A DNA stretch of 32,000 nucleotides from Candidatus Saccharimonadota bacterium. GTDB lineage: Bacteria; Patescibacteriota; Gracilibacteria; Absconditabacterales; Absconditicoccaceae. The position numbers and the translations under genes are program-made. The notes below the pieces were generated by a model, which was not told the origin of the DNA, made no database searches, and saw only the letters and a program-made list of their open reading frames with translations. Where the stretch lies: NCBI GenBank assembly GCA_965231145.1, contig OZ246420.1, forward strand, positions 750,001 to 782,000. Direction: 5' to 3'. Within the stretch, counting starts at the first letter, position 1, and the number at the start of each line of letters is the position of its first letter. Of the stretch, positions 1 through 27,285 are shown piece by piece.

Positions 1-1265
1 GAATGTGCTTTGCCGGCGTCTCGGCTGCAGGTTACTGTACTCTGGAGTTTGGGCGAGGCACACCAGAGGGGGATTACATTGCAAGAGTACTTTTAACAGG
101 TAACAGTAATGTATTGGATAATGTAACTGTGGGTGCATCATCTCCTTTTTATACTCATTATAATACATGAGTAACTCTTACGGGAGGACAATCATATAGC
201 ATAACCATAAGAGTAGGAACTTTCCCTTGATCTACTCAATCAGTAGCTGCTTGGATAGATTACGATCAAAATGATGTATTTGAAGCAAGCGAAAAACTAT
301 GAGAAACAACATCTATGGGGCCAGATACTTATACCACTTTTTCTTTTTCAGTACCAATGACATGAGTCAATGGGACAACAAGAATGCGCGTATTGGAGTC
401 GTCATACGGTACAAATCTTGATCCATGTGCACCAGCATGGCTCTATGGAGAAACAGAAGATTATGACATCACTCTCATATGAATGGCAACAGCGGCTCCC
501 ATCGGTGGTGAAGGTTATAGAAAACTCCCTATAGACAATTGTCCGGATAAAGATATTTCGCCTACACCCTACGATGGGTTATGCGCGGGCATGAGTCCGT
601 TCATTGGTGGGATACTGGCCGACTCAATTAATACTGCTACAGCAACTGGATCAAATAACATGACCGGAGAGGTGTCGTTCTCTACAGGAGATATAAACAA
701 CGATGCGACAACTGGAACCCATGAACTTATAGAGGATCCTTCTTCTATGAATGCGGCAGCCAGATGTACAGATAGTGAAGAACAAAGTGCATATGAGTTT
801 TGAATGAGTCATGCGATAACATCAAAAGAGACATGCCTTTCGGCTGATATGAATGGAGGGCTCATCAGGATCGATGCAGCAAAAATGATAGTAAATTTCG
901 CTATGAATGTACTCGACAGAAGACCAGATTCGACCAAAAAATGTGTATTTAATGATATGACTGATCAATCAGTAGAGACACAAGAATATGCATTAAAAGC
1001 CTGCCAGCTTGGTCTTATGGGGCTTAAGGGAAATGGGACTCCTGCTGCGATGTTTCACCCAAATGAACTCGTTAATAAGGCTCAGTTCGTCTCTGCCCTT
1101 TCAAGATTACTCTATGGAGAAGCTCACAACTCAAAAAGAACATGTCGATATTGTATGCATGCACAGGCACTCAAGGATGCTTCTATTATAAATCTCACCA
1201 ACGATCTTATGCAGCCTATCAAAAGAGGTCGAGCAATAATCATGTTCATGAGAGTAACAAAATAA
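1..1265 (+). CDS. Surface protein, 5'-truncated by the window: GEVED domain + Cys motif + SLH-like C-terminal module
   Basis: The frame starting at nt 3 is open to TAA 1263-1265 if six in-frame TGAs are read as Gly. This joins track ORFs 483..803 and 804..1265. GEVED-like signature: AAWIDYDQNDVF...GTTRMRV...DPCAPAWLYGETEDYDITL. Followed by DNCPDKDISPTPYDGLCAG and an SLH-like tail (ACQLGLMGLKGNG..FHPNELVNKAQFVSALSRLLYG). Confidence 0.8.
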
Positions 1266-7541: not shown

Positions 7542-9704
7542 CTATTTCGTAGGAATATAGTTCATACGTGCACTAATCACATATGATGAATCAGTCTCAT
7601 CCTTAGAAAACGCCTGATCCTTATATGCTCTAAACAACATGAGTCCAGCATCATGTCTTGAAACAGGATCAAGTCCAGCTCCATTTTTAATGATACCAAG
7701 TTTTGTTGCTACATCATTGTAAACTGCGTACCAAACACCCTGATCTTCAGGAAGATAACTCTTAAGGATCAGTCTTGTAAGCACTGCATTGAGTTCTGCT
7801 TTTGTAATGAAATCTGTTGGTCTGAACTGCCCATCAGCCCCTCACTTCATAAGACCAAGTTGATATGCGAGAGTGATATATTTCGCAAGACTTGGATCAG
7901 CAGTGTTTACATCGCTATAGTTGATAGTATCAGCTGTTGGCTTTCTACAAAGGACATTGATCGCAAAGTTTGAGAACATCTTTGCTGCTTGTTGTCTTGT
8001 CATAAAACCAAATGGCTCAAATGCATCCATGCTATTGAACATAGTCATATCATACGCATTGAGGAACATAAACGCTGTTTTGAACTCCTCTGTCGTCACG
8101 ATACCTGTTGAATCTATGATATTAGTAATCTCTTCTCTTTCAAAGCATTCATTATTAGGTATGTCAGGATTGAATACCTTAGCTGGCTCGATAGAGATTA
8201 CATTTGTATTCTTAACTGGTTGATTCACAACTATTGGTTTGACAGGCTCTGTCACTTTTACTGTCCCTACTAAAGGGATAGTAGCATACGGTGTTGGCGA
8301 ATTTCTTGCAGGACCAACCATTGATCATCCACCTCATCCTCCGCCTCCTCAACCAAATCATACGTTAGCAACCGGCGCTGTAGTCGTAGCAGTTGTCTCT
8401 TCACAGACAGAAAGGAAATCTCCTCCACCCATGTCATACACAGCACAGATCGTAATAGTATAAGCTGTTCCGTTACTCAATCCTGAAAGCGTATAGCCCG
8501 AAAGAGTTTTATCAATACCTGTCATCTCACCATTACCCGGAGAGTATGAAATAGTATATGAGTCAAGATTACTGAGATTTCCACTCATAGGCTCACTCCA
8601 CGAAAGATCTACGACACCCAGACCTCCTGTTGCAAGTAGATTAACGACAGGATATTTACATGAACCATCATCAGAGCTTGCTCCTGAAAGATAGTTTATA
8701 GCATCTGCATCGGTACATCCAGGTCAAAGATCGACCGTAGAACCTTCTACCATACCTCATTCCATGTAAAAGATGAAACGTCCTGGAATTTCACTGTTAA
8801 GACTAAGAGTATTGAGTGCATAATCACCCTCATCCCAAAGCTGATCTGTGGTCATGCCATTGAGTACGAGTCAACTATTATCAACGATAGAGTTATAGAT
8901 CGTTGCACTTCAGCTCACATTACCAAGCCCTATCGCAACACGGTTTCCATCATATCCTTCATCATTTTGATTTCTTATACTTCCATAGTTCACGATCACA
9001 TTGACGTCATCGTTCGTGTCATCCACATCGACAAGCATAATCTGAAATGTATTCCAGAGTCCTTCATTATCACTAGAACTATATGTTGGGATATTAATCC
9101 ATGTGGCAACGAACGCAGGACGCCCTTCGAATATCGTACGTCACCAGTAGGTGAAATCAGTATGACGGGCTCCGCTATTCCACAGAGCAATCACTTCACC
9201 TAACTGTTCATCATTTTCCAAGTCCAGACAGTATGCACATACTCATGGCTTTGAACCAAGAATCTCATTGAGAGGTTGGTCATATTCATACGATCCCTGC
9301 CCAAATGAAAGCGAACCATTTGAATTAACAAAAACTGCGTCATACATGGTACCATACCAGTTGATATCAAAACCAATAGGTATACCTTCACTTCCATTCA
9401 TACCATCAATTCCCATCCAACAGTCATCACATCCATACCCAAGACGAGTATCAAACTGAGGACGTTGCGTTTGAAACCATGTATTCCACCCAGACCACGA
9501 TCCGAGAGGAATAAGGTCTGAATCTCCTGAAGCGGGCTGCTGACAACCGATAACAAACCCACTTGCATCCAATACCACTGGTCAAAGATATGAAGCGCCG
9601 CTATAGTTTAGACACCCCAAGCCCGATGCTTCTGTCGAAGATCATAAAGAAAGAGCTCATGCTCACAATAAAATCCCAAATACCAAGAACAGTATCTTTT
9701 TCAT
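7542..9704 (-). CDS. Secreted surface protein (720 aa): signal peptide, NIDO (nidogen)-like domain, FN3 domain, poly-Gly linker, tandem SLH-like C-terminal module
   Basis: One frame joins 9243..9578, 8358..8588, 7842..8321 and 7542..7784 plus the unlisted stretches, through about 15 TGAs. Start ATG 9702-9704 (MKKILFLVFGILLGAGALSLG). NIDO-like: IGFDINWYGTMYDAVFVNSNGSLSF...VIALWN...NTFQIMLVDV..VNVIVNYGSI. FN3: VVDLSWSEP...YTISYSP...LSGLSNGTAYTITICAV. SLH-like: AYQLGLMKGGADGQFRPTDFITKAELNAVLTRL. TAG stop. Confidence 0.85.
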
Positions 9705-9870
9705 ATATGTATATATACGGCGAAATAAAACTCTTTTTGTGTACACAAATGGGAGCCTATTTACAATCAGATCTCACTCCCATACATTATTTAATCATCT
9801 CAATATATAAAAAGAGTATATAATTATAACAATATGATAATCTCTATAAGTTGTCAGAACAGAAATCAAT

Positions 9871-9895
9871 AAAAAAACAAGGACATGATCCTTGT
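9871..9895 (-). terminator. Rho-independent terminator (minus strand) after the VOC gene
   Basis: acaagga-catga-tccttgt stem. On the minus strand it is followed by TTTTTTT. Confidence 0.6.
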
Positions 9896-9916
9896 TTCTT
9901 AGGCACTGATTACTAA

Positions 9917-10327
9917 TTATGCTTGCTGAGGCATTTTGCTTTGATCCATGAAAAAGATTTCCCAGTGGTGGCCATCAAGATCGAGAAATCATTTCTGATA
10001 CATCCACCCCATGTCCTGACTCTTCTGTTCAGTAGCTCCAGCTGCAATCGCGCTATTTCGCATAGCATCAACCGCTTCTCTACTTCCACAGTCCAGAGAA
10101 AGAATTACCTCACTCGTCTTCCTAGCATCAGCAATCTCTTTTGTAATGAACCCCTTATACATCTCATGCGTGATAAGCATGGCATAAATATGTCCATCAT
10201 CAACAATCATGCATGTCGCATGTGCGTCAGTAAACTGCGGATTGAAAGTAAATCCAAGCTTCGTAAAAAACTCCACTGATTTATTGAGGTCTTGTATAGG
10301 AAGGTTGATGAATATCTGCTTAGACAT
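9917..10327 (-). CDS. Glyoxalase/bleomycin-resistance (VOC) family protein (136 aa)
   Basis: ATG 10325-10327 (MSKQIFINLPIQDLNKSVEFFTKLGFTFNPQF). The TGA at 9989-9991 read as Gly extends the protein to ...MGWMYQKGFLDLDGHHWEIFFMD...TAA 9917-9919, restoring the family-typical ...F.D.DGH.WE... C-terminus. Confidence 0.85.
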
Positions 10328-12758: not shown

Positions 12759-14621
12759 TTATTGTCACATATCAACAGACTGCAAAAAGCGCATAATATC
12801 TATCCTCTTACTGCTATCAGGCTGTGAAGATGATTGTCCAAGATATCTACCGATAACGATACCAAACTCCTCTGCTGAAAGAGTGTCGAATGGTCTAAAT
12901 GAATCCAAAAGATTTGTTTTGTCTCACTTCCACCCCATGAGTCCAAGATTACAGATGGTATGGATAACATCTTTCATCTCTGCATCAAACATACTGTAAT
13001 CAGCAAAGTTTTCTATAGTACACTGAGCATTTTTTTCGACTGATTTCTTTTCTACATTGACTGCGAAATGCGCTATCATCTTTGCTGCTTCATATCTAAG
13101 AATTCCATCATTGAGCCTTGCTTTTGTCAGAGGTAATGTAGTTATATGATGTTCATATGCCCACTTGTATACATCGAACGAGGTTGGTTTATTTGATGCT
13201 ACAGACGCCGTTTTTGATGGAGTTATTATAACTGGTGTTACTTGTGGAGCAACTATACTCGGTGTTATTGCTGGCGTTGATGATGAAGAGCTTCCTCCAC
13301 CACCTCCTCCAGCACTGACTCCACCATTTGAAGGGCTCAATCCTGAACAAAGTCCATCGTATACGGTTGGTGATGCATCTCCCTGAGGACAATTATCAGT
13401 TGGTATAACTATGGGCGTTCCTCCTCCTGGTATGCCTCTATATCCCCGTGCAGCATAATGATCGTGAAGGAACCACAAGGTATTGAGATCTAAAGTGTTT
13501 TCATTGAGTACATTTCCACTAAGATATAATTCCAATGCACCCGAGTACAATCCTCTTGAGGTTATGGTAAGTGATGCCAAAGGATTGTTAGATGTATCTA
13601 ATATGCGAAGTCATGTATTATGAGAAATATCAATTCCTGTAAACACTCCTCCAGTTTGGCCTCCTATATAGAAATAGGTTAGATTACGGTTGGTAGAAAG
13701 ATCTACTGATGGGATCGCATTTCCGTACAAACCTACAGATTCAAGTCTCGTGAGTCCGGAGAAATTGATACCCGTCAGATTACTATTATTTGCAGCAAAC
13801 CTTACAAGTCCTGTATTAGTTGAAAGATCGATATTGCTTATACCTGCGTAGTCGAGATACAATGTATGAAGATAGATAAGACCGGAAACATTTACCATTT
13901 GGATAGTAGGAGTCCAGTTATATGACGCTAGGATCTCTTCAAGAAGCGGATTATTTCTAAAATCAAGACCAGTAAACAAATTAAGACCAAATGCTACTCC
14001 GGTAAGTAAGGTATTGTGAGAAAGATCAATCCATGTCAGACTAGTATAAGCAACATACAATGATCTTAGATTGATATTTTGAGAAAGATTGAGAGAGGTC
14101 ATGCCGGAAGAACCTATATTCAAACTCTGCAAACCTGTAAGTAAAGTAAGACTGATACCGGTAAAAGCATTATTAGAGATATTCAAGCTGAGCAATCCAC
14201 TACTTTGAGAAAAATTGATAGCAGTGATTCCGTTGCTGTAAGCGCTAAATCCCGTAAGATATGGCAAAAGCTGCAATCCTGTAACGATAGCACCACTCAA
14301 ACGACCAGTATCCAAATTGAGAATTTTTAGGCGGCCGCCGCCTATCGTAATAGCTCCAGTAAGAAATCCACTTGGATGTGCCCAGGTAGTGAGATCTATA
14401 TTGGAAAACCAATTACCAGTAGCAATCCAGTTATCACCGCTCGTTTCGTGATAGAGCCAGGCAAGGCCATTACACTCACCATGTGAAATGGCAATACTCC
14501 CTGAATTGGTATCACACCAGATTAAATTGGTAGCAAGATTTGCAGCAGAGACAGTCGATGCTATGACCATACCTATAAACAAGGATCATACAGCTATGAC
14601 CGCTTTTGATATGAATTTCAT
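12759..14621 (-). CDS. Secreted leucine-rich-repeat surface protein (620 aa) with Cys motif, Gly/Ser linker and SLH-like C-terminal module
   Basis: Joins 13611..14582 and 12924..13580 plus both flanks through four TGAs. ATG 14619-14621 (MKFISKAVIAVGSLFIGMVIASTVSAA). N-cap ECNGLAWLYHETSGDNW..GNW. More than 10 LRR units of about 23-24 aa (L..L.L..N.LTGIDLS.N..L). DNCPQGDASPTVYDGLCSGLSP, then GGGGGGSSSSS, then ICNLGLMGWKGDKTNLLDSFRPFDTLSAEEFGIVIGRYL. TAA 12759-12761. Confidence 0.85.
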
Positions 14622-19568: not shown

Positions 19569-20123
19569 CTATTGCCCTACTATTACTTTTGCAGCCTTAA
19601 TTACTTTCTTTGTTTCACCCTGCCTAATAGTGTAGCCAGCTTCGTACTCTTTGATGATTTTTCATTTCAATGCTGCGTCTGTTGTTTCTTCTACGCTCAA
19701 AGGCTCATGTAAATCGCTATCCGGATCCTGTCCTATGGTAGCGATTTTTTCAATTCAGAGAGATTGCAATGTTTTCATAGCATTATCATAGATAAGCTTT
19801 ACTCCATCCGCCCAGGTATTGCTTTTCATATCTTCCGGCATGTGTTCTACCGAATACGATAGTTGATCAATAATAGGCAATATCTTTTTCATAATATCCA
19901 CTATGCTCTCTGCTCTTTGATTTTTGCTCTCCTGTTCAATTCTGCGTTGATAACTATCAAAATCATATTTGAGCATCACATAATCATATTGTGCTTTCTT
20001 AGCGACTTCTTCTAAATTCTTTATTTTTGCTGACACGTCTTCATCTTTATTATCATTTGTCGCCGTCTCTGTATCAGTTGACTGTATCTGTTCCTCATGT
20101 GTTTGATCTTCTGCTTTTGTCAT
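19569..20123 (-). CDS. grpE: Nucleotide exchange factor GrpE (184 aa)
   Basis: Track ORF 19755..20123 has an acidic N-terminus and the coiled coil KNLEEVAKKAQYDYVMLKYDFDSYQRRIEQE. It continues through two TGAs to ...IEKIATIGQDPDSDLHEPLSVEE...GYTIRQGETKKVIKAAKVIVGQ, the GrpE C-terminal beta-domain pattern. TAG 19569-19571. Confidence 0.85.
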
Positions 20124-20190
20124 TGGTAGTGAGTATTACAATCTAAAACCAGTTTCATAGTAACGATCTTTTACAAAAAAACAATATAAC

Positions 20191-20211
20191 AAAAAACTGG
20201 TTTCTTACCAG
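20191..20211 (-). terminator. Small Rho-independent terminator (minus strand)
   Basis: On the minus strand: ctggt-aagaa-accag followed by TTTTTT, 28 nt after the TAA of 20239..20520. Confidence 0.45.
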
Positions 20212-20238
20212 TCTTTATATCATATTATGCTCTTATAA

Positions 20239-20520
20239 TTAGTTTGCTCACGACTGCGAAATATCTCATGATGCACCCATCTTCATCATACCTTTTTCCT
20301 CTTTGATCTGATTGATCATATCTCTGATTCATTGTTTTCTCATATCTGCAGGATTATTCATCTGATGCAGCTTGTACGAGTAATGCATAGGCATTCTTCT
20401 TACTGCAGCGCAGAAAAAAGCCATAGTTACTAGCAAGTTAAAGATACAGAAGACAAAAAGCCATCCTACAAGAGTAAGACCACAATATCTTTTTTCAGAA
20501 GAGTGCATATTCATAAGCAT
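20239..20520 (-). CDS. Small single-pass membrane protein (about 93 aa), orphan
   Basis: Track ORF 20329..20592 continues through three TGAs to TAA 20239-20241. The first ATG is at 20518-20520; other ATGs lie at 20514 and 20508. TM segment LTLVGWLFVFCIFNLLVTMAFFCAAV. Confidence 0.5.
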
Positions 20521-20704
20521 ACGAGTTAGAAATAATAAAGCGCTTTTTCTATCAAAAAAGCGAGTTATCAGGAAAGCCGTATTCACTAACAACTCGCCCG
20601 AACACTATACTCATCTACCTTAGAGAAACCTTAAGAAAAAACCAGAGATCTTTTATGCTATAAGCAAAGATAGTTTGACAAGTTAAGGTTTTATTTTTTT
20701 GTAT

Positions 20705-20729
20705 AAGAAAAGACGCAATTGTTTGCGTC
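20705..20729 (-). terminator. Rho-independent terminator of secA (minus strand)
   Basis: gacgcaa-ttgt-ttgcgtc stem. On the minus strand it is followed by TTTTCTT. Lies 41 nt after the secA TAA. Confidence 0.6.
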
Positions 20730-20769
20730 CTTCCTCCTTATTTAATTAGTAATTCGTAATTAGTAATTG

Positions 20770-23700
20770 TTAATTTTTGATATGTCGTCCTTTTGCCAAC
20801 AACTCCTCTGCTTTCTTATATTTCATCTCTTCTTCTTTTCCCTCTGGAGAAACGACAGTAACAAGGTCATTTCTTCCATATTTCTTTCCACTAGCAGCTG
20901 GAGCCTGATGACTAGGAGCTTGCTCAATAACTTCTACCCCGTCATCCTCTTTAAAGGCATGCGCATAAAGCTGTTGCTTCGCCTGCTGATAGTTTTGAGG
21001 CTGCGCTTGTCTTTTTGCATACGGTGTAAACTCAGGAAGATCTTGCGATGCCTCTTGGAGTCTATTGAGCATAGCATGAGACTGTTGTTCCTCCGTAGCA
21101 AGGATAGTTTGTCCCTGCCCTGCTCTAAAGTCAGTGCGGAAGATAATTGCTATCGTCTCCTGTTTAATATTAAACATGAGCTGTTCAAATTTATCGAACG
21201 CTTCTTTCTTATAGATGATCAGCGGATCCTGCTGTGCATAACCGTAAAGACCAACCTTATCGCGAAGGTATTGCATATCATCGATATGAGCGATCCAGTA
21301 CTTATCTATCATCGCCAAGTAGATCATACGCAGCGTCTCATCTGTTACGCGTGGATCCACACCAGCAAGCTTTTTATCAAAATATGTCTCAAATGAAGTA
21401 ATAAGCTCATTACGAAGACTTGTGAGATTACGAACTTTGTCTGCATTAACAGGAAGCTGATCAAATGCAAAATCCTGTTTGATCGTTTCTATAACCTCTT
21501 GGATTTCCATTTGTGTTTTTTCGTATTTTCCAATCAACCCATCAACGATCTGTTCAATAAACCCTCTGATTTCTGCAACGGTTGATGTCTTATTTTCCTT
21601 AGTTTCTACTACGATATAAGGAAGCATTGATGGCTCTTCTTTCGAATCGAAGTGCTCTTCTTCTGCGTCCACAAATACTGGTTTCACATGTAACTCCTTA
21701 CCAAGAAGCTCCGCTTGTTCTCTTGGCACACATGTATCTTTATTATCATGAATCACCACTATTTCTTCTGCAAGTGATCTGATTTTTTCAAAATCAAATG
21801 TTCGATCAAAGCTTGGGAAATATGCATCTAGCTCATCCGTATTGAGCTTCGGCTGAGCAAATCCAGCCATAAGGACTAACTTCTTTATCTTCACACCTCT
21901 TCTTTCAAGCGCTTTCAATGCTACCGCAACTCCGAGACTATGCCCGACCAGCACAGTATGACTATTGAACTGAGCATTATCAGTGATAAATGTAATTTGT
22001 TCTTCAATATTCGGTTGGTCAGGATTTGGTAATGCTGGAATGATAACAACACCTCCCTTCGCTTCCAGTTCCTTCTTGAGCCATGGCTTAAAGTTTCCGT
22101 CTGGCCTTCCTTCAAATCCGTGGAGTATCATATAGTTTACTGTCTGTTGCTGGAGTGTGAGCATCTCATCACGCTTAGTATAGATCCTTTGTCTCTGACG
22201 ATTGATCACTGAATCGTAGTCGAAGAGATGTTTACGGATAGAAAAGTTCCATCCTTCCATCTGTTTCTGCGCACGGATGATTGATGAGCTAAATTGTTTT
22301 TGTGTAAGCTCAAGATTTTCAAGGTCGTCTTTCTTCATGAGAAATCCTGCTACTGCCTGTATCTTTTCACCCCCCATCTTACGCATAATCTCATCATCGA
22401 GCGCAACAAAGAAGACTGAAAGACCTGGATCTCACTGACGTCCTGCACGACCTCTGAGCTGATTATCAATGCGGCGTGACTCATGTTTTTCTGTACCAAG
22501 GATGAAAAGCCCATAGTGAAACTCTCTTTCTACTACCGTCCCCTCCCCTTCTATTGGTTTGATAGTAATCTTTGCAAACCACTGGTCTGGCTCTTTCTTT
22601 GCTTTATTAAAGTCGATACTGAGTAATGCACCTTCTATTTGGATCATTCCCTTTTCTGCTGAGCGAATTTGTTCATCCGAAAGATTCCAGGCTTGTTTAA
22701 TTGCCTCTATAGTATAGTTGAACTCTTTTTCAGAAAACACTGTTGCGACTGCTGCTTGCGGAGGGATTTTACTAAATGTATTTCCTTTGAGTGTTGATTG
22801 GATCCACTTCACATAGTTTGCGGCAACTTTTTCATGGAGTCATTTTTCCAATTTAATGTCTGTTCCACGTCCTGCCATGTTTGTTGCTACTACCACAGAG
22901 CTCATCTTACCTGCATTCGCCACTATTTCTGCTTCCTGCTGGTGAAATTTGGCGTTCAGCACGTAGTGCTGGATTTGTATCTGACGTAAGATGTTTGATA
23001 CGAGCTCTGACGTGTGGATGCTCGATGTTCCGATAAGGATAGGTATTCCTGCTTCATGGTAAAATTTGATATAGTCCACGACCGCTTTCCATTTTGCGTT
23101 TTGGTTGAAGTAGACCTTATCTGTCTGATCGACACGAATCACCTGTCTGTTAGTTGGTATGCTCAGTACTTCCAATTCGTAAATCTTTTCAAACTCCTCT
23201 CCTTCTGTTGTTGCAGTACCAGTCATACCTGCAAGCTTTTCGTAGATCTTGAAAAAATTCTGGTAAGTAATCGTTGCCAAAGTCTGTGATTCACGTTGGA
23301 TGTTCACATTTTCCTTTGCTTCGATGGCCTGGTGGAGACCTTCCGAATAACGTCTTCCCGGCATCGTACGACCGGTATGTTCATCGACGATGAGAATTTC
23401 TCCTTCATGCACGATATAGTCCTTATTGTCATGATAACATGCCTGCGCCTTGAGCGCATTTTCAATATGATGAATCTCATCAAATCCAAAATCTTTATAC
23501 AGGTTCTCTACGTTGAGGATCTTCTCAAGCTTCGCGATACCCTGCCCCGACAACGTCACATTTTTATTTTTCTCATCTATGTAGTAGTCTCCATCTTCTT
23601 CCTGCTTATCTTCCTTTTGGAGTACTTCCGCAAGAAATCCTTTCGGCGTTTTTTTCTTGTGCGCAGAAGGTGTGAGAAGACGTACGATCTTCGCATAGTA

Positions 23701-24456
23701 TGCATATTTCTCTGTTGGCTCAGCAGAAGGCTGAGAAATAATAAGCGGTGTTCTTGCTTCGTCAATAAGGATCGAGTCTACCTCGTCGACGATAGCAAAA
23801 AAGAGCGGACGCCATACCACGTTACGTTCTGAGAGCGTACGAGTTAAGTTGTCACGTAAGTAATCAAATCCAAGTTCACTATTTTCCACATAGGTAATAT
23901 CTTTTCCATACTCTTCACGACGAAGATGGATAGGTGTTCCTTTTACCACTGATCCACATGAAAGTCCGAGCCATCCATAGAGATACGCCATCCACTGGCT
24001 GTCACGAGACGCAAGATAATCATTGACTGTTACGACATGTACTCCTTTTCCTGCGAGCGCATTGAGATACGTTGGTAATGTTGCCACGAGCGTCTTACCT
24101 TCACCCGTTTTCATTTCCGAAATCTTTCCTTGGTGAAGCACAATACCACCTATAAGCTGCACATCATATGGTACCATATCCCACACAACAATCTGTCCTT
24201 TCACATCACACTCTGTTCATTTCATCCTTTTACATGCTTGCTTCACTGTTGCAAATGCCTCAGGAAGGATATCATCAAGCGTTTCACCTGCTTCAAGTCT
24301 TTTCTTAAATTCCGGAGTCTTAGCCTTAATTTGCTCATCAGTGAGCGAATCCCACTCTTTATCTAATTCATTTATCTTTTTTACCAATGGCTGAATCTTA
24401 TTCAACTGACGCTGATTGTAATCACCGGCGATAGCGCCTAATATACTAGTAAACAT
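20770..24456 (-). CDS. secA: Preprotein translocase ATPase SecA (1228 aa) with an embedded alpha/beta-hydrolase domain
   Basis: Four same-frame track ORFs (24217..24456, 22840..24204, 22432..22812, 20770..22386) are separated only by TGA. Walker [13 protein letters not shown]-like [64 protein letters not shown] motifs [38 protein letters not shown] stop. The C-terminal tail has no Cys-rich zinc motif. Confidence 0.95.
21607..22140 (-). other. In-frame YdeN/RBBP9-type (Ser_hydrolase-like) alpha/beta-hydrolase domain inserted in SecA (about aa 773-950)
   Basis: [42 protein letters not shown]..., nucleophile elbow VLVGHSLG (Ser codon 21937-21939), [28 protein letters not shown]. Flanked by the SecA scaffold helix (..[13 protein letters not shown]) and the wing domain. 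Confidence 0.7.
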
Positions 24457-24929: not shown

Positions 24930-25077
24930 ATTTTCAGTATATATATGTAACAAATAAAATCAATGTAAGAAAACATACGGCCACAGACATAGCGCGCGAC
25001 AACTTATTACAAATAAGTCAATACATTATGGCTTTTGAGCCTTGAGATCTGGTTTTTTGATTGCAAAAACCCCTGAC

Positions 25078-27285
25078 ATGAATATAGGTAATAAATGGTT
25101 TTTACGAACTAATAGTTTTAACGTGGCGAGAAGAAAAAAGAAAGTAGCGAGGAAAAGAAGCACTTTCGTCTTAGATAGAAAAAGATTGGGTATTATCATG
25201 ATAGTGGTATGAGCACTGTATTTCTTTTCAGTCTCATTTGCGAAAGATTCTCCAATATTGGGATTGTTCAATAGAATTGTCACACTGCTTGTAGGAGAAA
25301 TTGGTATACATATTTTTTTCTGACTGGCGATACTCGCGGGTATTATGACCCTTATCAAAGAAGGACTCACAAGAACTATTGTGAAACAGTTCTTTGTCCT
25401 TAGCATGATCATATCAGCGATCCTCAATTTTCCGGTGATCGAAGAACAAAGTATCGCCTACCAAGAGTACGGAGGATATATCGGCTGGCCGATCCTGTGG
25501 ATCTTGCAACGCATCTTTGGGGAAAATCCTTTCGCTATTAAGGCTCTCATTGTCCTGTTAGCAATAGGTGTTATCATATGGATCATCTGGGCGTTTAATA
25601 TTCCAGTGCCAAGACTTCCATCGGTATCTCTCAGAAGCAGTAACACAGGAAAACCAGCGATGGCGAAGAAAGCAAAGAAAGTCGAAGAAGACGAGGAAGA
25701 AGAGTACGAATACGAGGAAGAAGAAGAGGAAGGGACACTCCCTGTCGTCACGAAGAAAGGATCTGCTATCGGCGATAGCTTGAAATCAATGCTCAAAGAT
25801 AAGATACAGAACAAGATCAAAGAAAAAGAGCAGAAAGTTATTAAGTTTCCTAAAGATAAACCGACTTTTGACATCAGCCTTCTTCCGGAAGGAGCCACCA
25901 GTACATTCGACGTCGATCAATCATATCTCGAACAAAAAGCCATCGCCATTAAGGGTAAACTCGAAGAGTTCGATATACCTATCGATATTAAGTGATTCAA
26001 TGTTGGACCCTCGGTCGTACAGGTAAAAGTTGCACCACAGGAAGGTATTAGAGTATCATCTATTGAAAGTTATCAAAAAGATATCGCGCTTGCACTGAAA
26101 ACGAAGTCATTGCGTATACTCGCACCTATCCCGGGAACTGACGTAGTTGGTATCGAGATACCAAATCCAAAACCACAGATGATTAGACTCAGACAGATCC
26201 TCGGAAGCCCAGGGTTTGCAGAAAATATGAATAAGAACCTCACGAACTTAGTACTCGGAATTGGAATCGATGGAAAGAATATGACAAAGCCGCTTGAAGA
26301 CATGCCGCATCTCCTCGTAGCAGGAGCGACAGGTTCAGGTAAGTCGGTGGGAGTTAATACGTTTATTCTCTCGCTTATCTACCAAAATAGTCCATCGGAA
26401 TTGAAGTTCCTCATGGTCGATCCTAAGCAGGTAGAACTTGGTATGTACGATGGTATCCCATATCTTCTTGCTCCGGTAGAAACAAATCCGGATAAAGCAC
26501 TAAAGATATTGAAATGGGCAGTCAATGAGATGGAAAGAAGATATACGTTACTCAAAGAATATAAGGTGAAAAAACTCGATGAGTATAATAAGAAGATGCC
26601 TGCAGATGCGATGCCTCGTATCGTTGTAGTCATAGATGAGTTGGCTGATCTTATGATGAATAGAAATACGAAGAAAGATACAGAAGCATGTATTACAAGA
26701 ATTGCACAGAAAGCACGTGCGGTGGGAATCCATCTTATTGTTGCGACACAAAGACCATCGGTCGATGTCGTAACAGGACTTATTAAAGCGAACATACCAA
26801 CACGTATAGCATTTAGTGTGGTATCACAGATTGACTCAAGAACTATTCTCGATACGAAATGAGCGGAAGAACTACTCGGAAGAGGAGACATGCTCTTCAT
26901 GAGTGTGGATAGCAATACGCCAGTTCGTTTACAATGACCATTTGTCGATACGCCAGAGATCGAAGAGATCGTACAGGCCATCAAAGATAAATATATGAAA
27001 TGATTTACTGAAGATGATATCTACAACCAGGAACTCATGAATATCCTCTCAGGAAAAAATGTTGGTTCAGGTATGGGCGGATGAATGGGTGATGCAGGAG
27101 ACGATGAAGAACTCGTCAATCAAGCCACTCAGATCATCTTACAAACAAGAAAAGCATCTGCTACTCTCCTCCAGCGTAAACTCTGAGTAGGATTCGCACG
27201 TGCAGCCCGTATCATGGATATCCTTGAAGAACGCGGTGTTGTTGGTCCTCAAGAAGGAGCGAAACCGAGAGATATATATATGTAA
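25078..27285 (+). CDS. ftsK: DNA translocase FtsK/SpoIIIE (735 aa)
   Basis: One frame from ATG 25078 through about eight TGAs to TAA 27283-27285. N-terminal TM helices, acidic linker [47 protein letters not shown], Walker [13 protein letters not shown], Walker [25 protein letters not shown], winged-helix gamma domain [31 protein letters not shown]. Confidence 0.9.

Follow-up and report, generated by a model that had tools for sequence, protein, structure and literature searches.

The SecA protein encoded in a 32,000-nucleotide stretch of a Candidatus Saccharimonadota bacterium genome (Patescibacteriota; Gracilibacteria; Absconditabacterales; assembly GCA_965231145.1, contig OZ246420.1, positions 750,001 to 782,000 of the forward strand; hereafter the window) is characterized by a predicted α/β hydrolase domain nested within an otherwise complete translocation motor. 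The secA gene occupies 20770..24456 of the window on the minus strand, and the nested domain, a serine hydrolase of the YdeN/RBBP9-type PF06821 family recovered by Pfam, PDB, AlphaFold and Foldseek analyses, corresponds with its linkers to residues 772-959 of the product (21580..22143, minus strand). It is lodged after the long scaffold helix and ahead of the first wing-domain helix, i.e. at the junction of the helical scaffold domain (HSD) and the helical wing domain (HWD). These are known parts in an undescribed but conserved architecture, which itself belongs to a wider unreported pattern in Candidate Phyla Radiation (CPR) bacteria. From the conserved residues and the predicted fold, we consider it fairly probable that the domain is able to catalyze hydrolysis and rides as a passenger on a SecA that is otherwise intact.

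In insert-less close relatives the same loop aligns as a linker of 12-15 residues; because the insert replaces this linker, the net gain is ~175 residues. Pfam recovers PF06821 (Ser_hydrolase) at residues 775-945, covering model positions 1-163 of 172. The match scores 38.1 bits when the entire protein is scanned and 43.1 bits when the insert is scanned by itself; the Pfam gathering cut-off is 22 bits. A sequence search of PDB with the insert retrieves Bacillus subtilis YdeN (1uxo; E = 3e-14) and human RBBP9 (E = 2e-6), while an NCBIfam scan of it yields nothing but a sub-threshold partial match to an unrelated lipase-box-containing model. The active-site residues of the family can be traced one by one, all on the minus strand: the HG oxyanion-hole motif is His779-Gly780 (22117..22122), with H in 138 and G in 135 of the 144 aligned family domains; the putative nucleophile Ser840 (21937..21939) lies in a GHSLG elbow and aligns with the serine of the YdeN HSLG motif and Ser75 of RBBP9; the triad acid Asp907 (NKD-T; 21736..21738) aligns with RBBP9 Asp138; and the triad base His935 (EEH-F; 21652..21654) with RBBP9 His165. 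The positions aligned with the two RBBP9 anchor residues Glu108, which anchors the α-amine, and Tyr99, which belongs to the pocket, are occupied by Asp877 and Phe866, respectively, in a loop that is poorly modelled. Across the subclade neither position is conserved, the Glu108 column holding R, P, E, K or a gap.

An initial annotation, made from the nucleotide sequence, had placed an insertion of ~175 residues at 21607-22140, listed the hydrolase motifs with an apparently intact Ser-Asp-His triad, assigned it to the Ser_hydrolase family, and saw both boundaries free of stops, starts and frame changes. Its location was right, but the span given stops a little short of the domain and linkers as a whole. 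The extra length is borne out by the alignment with insert-less relatives, the family assignment by the significant profile match, and the clean boundaries by the in-frame reading. Each of the listed motifs is there, and in the alignments with YdeN and RBBP9 they fall on the catalytic residues of these two proteins, with Ser840-Asp907-His935 and the HG motif intact.

The autonomous fold expected at the HSD/HWD junction is likewise what structure prediction returns with confidence. The AlphaFold model of residues 766-965, built with 29 homologues, has a predicted local distance difference test score (pLDDT) of 83 and a predicted template-modelling (TM) score of 0.83. Foldseek against PDB with this model gives YdeN (1uxo) as the top match (E = 8e-13; TM-scores 0.76/0.81, with all 186 residues of the chain covered), followed by RBBP9 (0.75/0.8). 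Hence, the insert is predicted to fold as an autonomous α/β hydrolase, its least confident and most variable part being the cap loop. A larger model of residues 676-1228 shows how the domain is mounted: the scaffold helix (model residues 44-96) is followed by a 2-residue linker and the strand 99-104 of the insert, and a linker of ~10 residues leads from the insert back to the first wing helix. The wing domain and two-helix finger in this model have pLDDT mostly >90, and the same model matches both YdeN/RBBP9 and the Escherichia coli, B. subtilis and Thermotoga maritima SecA structures.

In the standard genetic code the secA region reads as a string of open reading frame (ORF) fragments. The minus-strand frame 24456..20770 contains three internal stops, all TGA, and is terminated by a TAA (20770-20772). 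In code 25 these TGAs specify glycine: at codon 80 (24217..24219) homologues have G (KRMKG), at codon 539 (22840..22842) they have KLEKG, and codon 675 (22432..22434) supplies the single Gly set off in GRAGRQ-G-DPG, a motif universal among SecAs. Since all three fall on glycines conserved in homologues, the region encodes one SecA of 1228 codons, whose nearest database relatives are from organisms named Absconditabacteria, SR1 or Gracilibacteria.

The motor of this SecA is complete, retaining both nucleotide-binding domains (NBDs) and the preprotein cross-linking domain (PPXD) along with the scaffold helix, wing domain and two-helix finger. Pfam recovers SecA_DEAD (PF07517, 395 bits), P-loop_SecA (PF21090, 225 bits), the PPXD (PF01043 SecA_PP_bind, 122 bits, residues 281-379) and SecA_SW (PF07516, 148 bits), the last in two stretches that flank the PF06821 insert. 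The motor motifs are the Walker A MKTGEGKT at residue 115, DEVD at 224 and GRAGRQGDPG at 669, and the tip of the two-helix finger, LYGYAQ, is conserved at residue 1070. In the AlphaFold model the long scaffold helix of the HSD spans residues 719-771 (22144..22302, minus strand), and the alignment to PDB SecA chains stops here. Downstream of the insert, the HWD and the IRA1 two-helix finger (residues 960-1107; 21136..21579, minus strand; second SecA_SW stretch at 961-1108) are intact as judged by Pfam, the model and Foldseek matches to the E. coli and B. subtilis SecA. The code-25 translation and the Pfam matches agree with the initial annotation in its picture of a re-joined 1228-residue SecA with collinear motor elements.

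That annotation also noted a VAR-like insert at 22432..22812 and the absence of the usual Cys-rich zinc-binding motif from the tail. As to the former, an extra NBD2 segment does exist at residues ~545-660 (window ~22477-22824, minus strand), whereas the span originally given is that of a table-11 ORF between two TGAs, which includes conserved NBD2 motifs besides this segment. This long NBD2 insertion is common to all retrieved SR1/Absconditabacteria SecAs; it and the hydrolase insert are the fastest-evolving parts of the protein, the NBD2 segment being 61% identical to that of the sister genome. As to the latter, the zinc-binding SEC-C motif, which is common but not universal in SecA, is indeed missing: there is no PF02810 match and no Cys after residue 1100. 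Instead, the protein ends in a Cys-less C-terminal mini-domain (residues ~1190-1228; 20773..20889, minus strand) with a predicted β-β-α fold (pLDDT ~96), which looks like an apparent zinc-free substitute for the SEC-C metal-binding domain. The Cys-less tail with its conserved end segment of ~35 residues is common to the nearest relatives (P0001-P0010).

The same in-frame architecture is found in a 937-kb NCBI contig of a sister genome (GCA_030429145.1; P0001, locus L001), which encodes a 1231-residue SecA. Altogether, at least 8 independent relatives, 59-86% identical, share the insert; we term these group A. They come from NCBI, JGI (L004, a 250-kb metagenome contig, 73% identical), and ENA and Logan (P0380/P0309, P0271, P0272, P0273 with P0349, P0274, P0310, P0198). 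The recurrence of the architecture in independent assemblies from these four sources answers the concern, voiced at the outset, that the insert might reflect a chimeric assembly. The triad, whose conservation in orthologues had been raised alongside, is kept in every group A sequence covering its positions.

The inserts of the window and L001 share 62% identity and show a ratio of non-synonymous to synonymous substitution rates (dN/dS) of ~0.22, compared to 0.06-0.09 for the motor domains and ~0.23 for the variable NBD2 segment; these ratios are rough, since dS is near saturation. Taken as such, they point to purifying selection on the insert. Moreover, three UGA-Gly codons lie inside the insert of L001, one of them encoding the first Gly of GHSLG, and three also lie inside that of L004, at positions other than those of L001. 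Such codons within the insert indicate that it is translated as part of SecA and evolved inside the code-25 lineage.

Searching 1.84 billion representative proteins exhaustively by HMMER with the insert gave 1849 matches, of which the best 150 are considered here; a GTDB genome scan with the insert gave two distant standalone homologues only. The nearest relatives are of two kinds: standalone CPR proteins of ~180 residues and domains nested in other hosts, with 65 of the best 150 matches being at least 260 residues long. The nested relatives are 33-45% identical to the SecA insert (85-143 bits), and are located at inter-domain hinges of large essential proteins. The most frequent host is LeuRS, with ~45 proteins among the best 150 (P0124, P0132, P0142, P0158 and others), in which the domain lies at ~240, 430-450 or 610-650. 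Other hosts are ValRS (P0219, P0234; at ~650 in P0219), AlaRS (P0184; 413-605), TsaD (P0166; 183-365), EngA/Der (P0176; 183-363) and UvrA (P0188; 199-378). The domain also occurs fused to NUDIX (P0207) and in tandem (P0123), and some LeuRS hosts additionally contain nested NUDIX or GNAT domains. Hosts with a named organism are all from the CPR: Candidatus Uhrbacteria (MBI4272991.1 = P0132) and Minisyncoccia (MFZ2594052.1 = P0154). At least one insert-bearing LeuRS, namely the latter, has in NCBI no other name than 'alpha/beta fold hydrolase'.

A distance tree places the nested domains, those of SecA group A among them, in one cluster with a few genuine standalone proteins of ~180 residues, apart from the bulk of standalone PF06821 proteins; the SecA insert belongs to a CPR-specific subclade of the family. 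In the embedded domains of the other hosts the Ser and the His are each present in 68 of 68, and the acid (D or E) in 59 of 68. The invariance of Ser and His in the nested copies suggests that catalysis is under selection wherever the module is nested. The best-scoring standalone relative (P0122, 183 residues, from ENA, 43% identical) has an Asp in place of the nucleophile Ser (GFDLG), and may be an inactivated or mechanistically altered copy.

Among SecA proteins the domain is sparsely distributed. PF06821 is found in 3 of the 120 best SecA matches (P0001, P0106, P0114), and the nearest other SecA relatives (P0002-P0010; ~1040 residues) are without it. A second SR1 SecA lineage, group B (P0106, P0114, P0302, P0303, P0308), has a PF06821 domain in the same loop with the triad kept. 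The group B domain features an extra segment of ~30 residues and a low-complexity N-terminal linker, and group B SecAs retain the canonical Cys-rich zinc-finger tail. A neighbor-joining tree of SecA with the insert masked joins group A to the insert-less P0002-P0009 clade as its sister and sets group B on a branch of its own. The most likely reading of these sequence relationships is that groups A and B acquired their hydrolase domains independently. We do not prefer a single ancestral insertion: group B inserts score a mere 37-40 bits against that of the window, whereas LeuRS inserts score 130-143 bits, and the group A domain matches LeuRS-nested and standalone copies overall at 130-160 bits; further, insert-less lineages intervene in the SecA tree. 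An ancient SecA insertion with later replacement is the less probable alternative. Another SecA (P0014) has a Thr-rich low-complexity linker of ~45 residues at the same site; this linker and the group B domain indicate that the HSD/HWD loop is a permissive hot-spot. The insert and a junction profile, each run as a query in word-indexed searches, gave few matches, mostly fragments, and missed P0001, P0106 and P0114; hence, they do not constitute a census.

SecA is among the best-studied molecular motors, and its known size variation consists of non-enzymatic loops. Compared with the canonical SecAs of E. coli (2fsf), B. subtilis (1m6n) and T. maritima (3din), the protein of the window has all the defining domains and motifs in collinear order, with the HSD, HWD and IRA1 matching by sequence and fold, and has, like long SecAs, an NBD2 insertion, the NBD2 VAR region being one of lineage-specific length variation in canonical SecA. 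It differs in that an entire enzyme domain from an unrelated superfamily, apparently a catalytic one, lies at the HSD/HWD junction, and a Cys-less mini-domain stands in place of the Cys-rich zinc-binding tail; the PDB search found no SecA with such a nested domain. With YdeN (1uxo) and RBBP9 (2qs9/7oex) the insert shares the family, fold, motif order (HG-GHSxG-Asp-His) and size of ~180 residues, but both of these are free-standing, and RBBP9 Tyr99 and Glu108 are not conserved in the nested domain. The PF06821 domains nested in CPR LeuRS, ValRS, AlaRS, TsaD, EngA and UvrA are the closest in sequence and share the conserved triad and the hinge placement; they differ in host protein and phylum-level lineage, and the extra NUDIX or GNAT domains of several LeuRS have no counterpart in this SecA.

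Two further precedents are instructive. The CP1 editing domain of LeuRS, IleRS and ValRS is the textbook nested hydrolytic domain, both parts being folded and functional (PMC13114784). It resembles the SecA insert as a hydrolase in a surface loop of a larger ATP-using enzyme, but is ancient, universal and host-coupled, whereas the SecA insert is recent and confined to small clades. Giant proteins of Omnitrophota and Actinobacteriota embed SecA_DEAD and PPXD modules without the scaffold and wing domains (bioRxiv 10.1101/2023.11.21.568195). These too are unusual architectures of SecA modules in ultra-small or predatory bacteria; in the present case, however, a complete housekeeping-type SecA is the host. 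Our literature searches turned up no account of an enzyme domain embedded in SecA, in agreement with the initial annotation, and none of PF06821 nested in CPR synthetases or other CPR hosts, which are present as database entries; the nearest published items are generic domain-insertion surveys (PMC13114784) and the said SecA-module fusions in giant Omnitrophota proteins (bioRxiv 10.1101/2023.11.21.568195).

Under the passenger reading that we favor, the module would have entered a structurally permissive hinge loop through domain transfer from a standalone or LeuRS-nested copy, and would not be part of the translocation mechanism. As carrier, SecA would provide the hydrolase with constitutive co-expression, and perhaps with a location near the ribosome or membrane. 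More generally, a useful small enzyme would be packaged at hinge loops into constitutively expressed essential proteins. The range of hosts, namely LeuRS, ValRS, AlaRS, TsaD, EngA and UvrA, argues that the fusion is not translocation-specific, and the same breadth counts against an esterase role on lipids or lipoproteins at the channel, on which the initial annotation had speculated.

To our knowledge, RBBP9 is the only member of the PF06821 family with a defined activity. It is an aminopeptidase acting on N-terminal aromatic or hydrophobic residues, for which it requires a free α-amine, and it forms Leu, Ile, Phe, Tyr and Trp acyl-enzymes (PMC8866121). By analogy, the SecA insert may cleave an aminoacyl amide or ester bond, a chemistry that, hypothetically, would suit both the aminoacyl-tRNA synthetase hosts and the N-termini bound by SecA. 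The aminopeptidase specificity of RBBP9 as such we do not transfer to the insert, the anchoring residues Tyr99 and Glu108 not being conserved.

Several points weigh against the passenger reading. The putative catalytic competence is read from conserved residues and a predicted fold only. Next, the N-terminal linker of group A, conserved and very short at 2 residues, holds the domain in a rigid attachment at the scaffold-helix end, which could mean functional coupling to SecA. Finally, most of the hosts (the synthetases, TsaD, EngA and SecA) bind tRNA or the ribosome, which hints at a shared host-relevant function.

The latter two points favor the foremost alternative, a host-coupled enzyme that acts on the clients or surroundings of SecA, the position on the motor being the very point of the fusion. 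It might trim the N-termini of preproteins or nascent chains in the manner of RBBP9, or cleave esters or lipids at the translocon. We hold this possible but distinctly less probable than a passenger. The removal of N-terminal hydrophobic or aromatic residues with a free α-amine by RBBP9 (PMC8866121) offers a model for such trimming, the same SecA site has been used twice, and an aminoacyl-ester hydrolase would make sense on those hosts that handle aminoacyl-tRNA or ribosomes. Yet the hosts also include UvrA and TsaD, and no one host-specific substrate fits them all; the RBBP9 anchor positions are not conserved across the subclade, and the cap loop is modelled with the lowest confidence and varies the most; and the insert-less sister SecA lineages function without the domain. 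A bolder generalization, to which we assign a slightly lower likelihood still, is that the CPR YdeN/RBBP9 subfamily is an insertion-competent module repeatedly built into proteins that handle aminoacyl-tRNAs, ribosomes or nascent chains, namely LeuRS, ValRS, AlaRS, TsaD, EngA and, in two separate events, SecA, where it would act in cis as an aminoacyl or N-terminal hydrolase.

Alternatively, the fold could be a non-catalytic module that acts as spacer or docking platform or regulates how the wing domain or PPXD moves, its hydrolase chemistry being of no account. The site tolerates unrelated length variation, as in the Thr-rich linker of P0014, the dN/dS of the insert exceeds that of the motor, and P0122, the closest standalone relative, has an Asp at the position of the nucleophile Ser. 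However, the Ser and His of all 68 embedded copies and the nearly invariant HG motif, as well as a triad kept in all group A and B inserts despite 60-70% overall divergence, are not expected of a pure scaffold, which makes this improbable.

Comparably low, and in our estimate a little lower, is the probability of a selfish in-frame element, i.e. an intein-like or other mobile cassette that settles in essential genes, from which its loss is difficult, with no benefit to the host. A patchy distribution, recurrence at different sites in many essential conserved proteins and two independent acquisitions in SecA are what such an element might produce. Against it, the Pfam scan finds no intein, Hint or homing-endonuclease domain; the intein splice residues (Cys/Ser/Thr ... 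His-Asn-Cys/Ser/Thr) are absent from the junctions, which read LQQQ/TVNY and KTST/VAEI; and the flanks show neither meaningful direct or inverted repeats nor a break in GC content. We accordingly reject a mobile-element signature, and the purifying selection on the insert and its catalytic residues and the UGA-Gly codons within it, which attest to a long residence in the lineage, point the same way. Lastly, an artefact, be it a chimeric assembly or a neighboring gene joined by reading through stops, would fit the fragmentation of the gene under the standard code and the prevalence of its fragments in public databases, but has next to no probability given the three TGAs on conserved glycines, the insert boundaries free of stops or frameshifts and the architecture shared at 59-86% identity by the 937-kb NCBI, 250-kb JGI and several ENA and Logan contigs.

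The genes around secA are of ordinary chromosomal kinds and likewise require UGA = Gly: these encode GrpE, FtsK (25042-27285, plus strand), a MraY-type transferase, an RluA-type pseudouridine synthase and cell-surface proteins. Code 25 applies throughout the window, and standard-code ORF calling splits grpE (19569-20123, minus strand), secA and others; many of these proteins are in public databases only as fragments or with W at the UGA positions. The gene order FtsK ... SecA ... GrpE is common to the window and the sister locus L001; in the latter an extra gene for a 939-residue DEAD/ResIII helicase lies between secA and grpE (L001 9781-12600), which is absent from the window (20124-20769). 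The window also encodes three large predicted surface or secreted proteins (3-1265, plus strand; 7542-10007 and 12759-14621, minus strand): one with GEVED, one with NIDO, fn3 and SLH, and one leucine-rich-repeat-like without a Pfam match. Two of the three share a Cys motif, P-x-DNCP-x-x-D-x-SPT-x-YDGLC-x-G, followed by a similar C-terminal region, which may be a lineage-specific cell-surface anchoring module.

For annotation, the lesson is that standard-code gene calling breaks such genes into pieces. For the Sec system, a motor that bears a conserved and apparently active enzyme domain is a new architecture. Further, the nesting of the same hydrolase subfamily in at least 7 different essential CPR proteins is an unreported pattern of accessory-enzyme packaging in minimal genomes, and gives a way into the function of bacterial YdeN proteins. 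Should the less likely proposal of a module acting in cis turn out to be true, the export motor itself would bear a processing enzyme, a kind of activity that the Sec machinery has never been credited with, and the synthetases would gain a second, non-CP1 deacylase.

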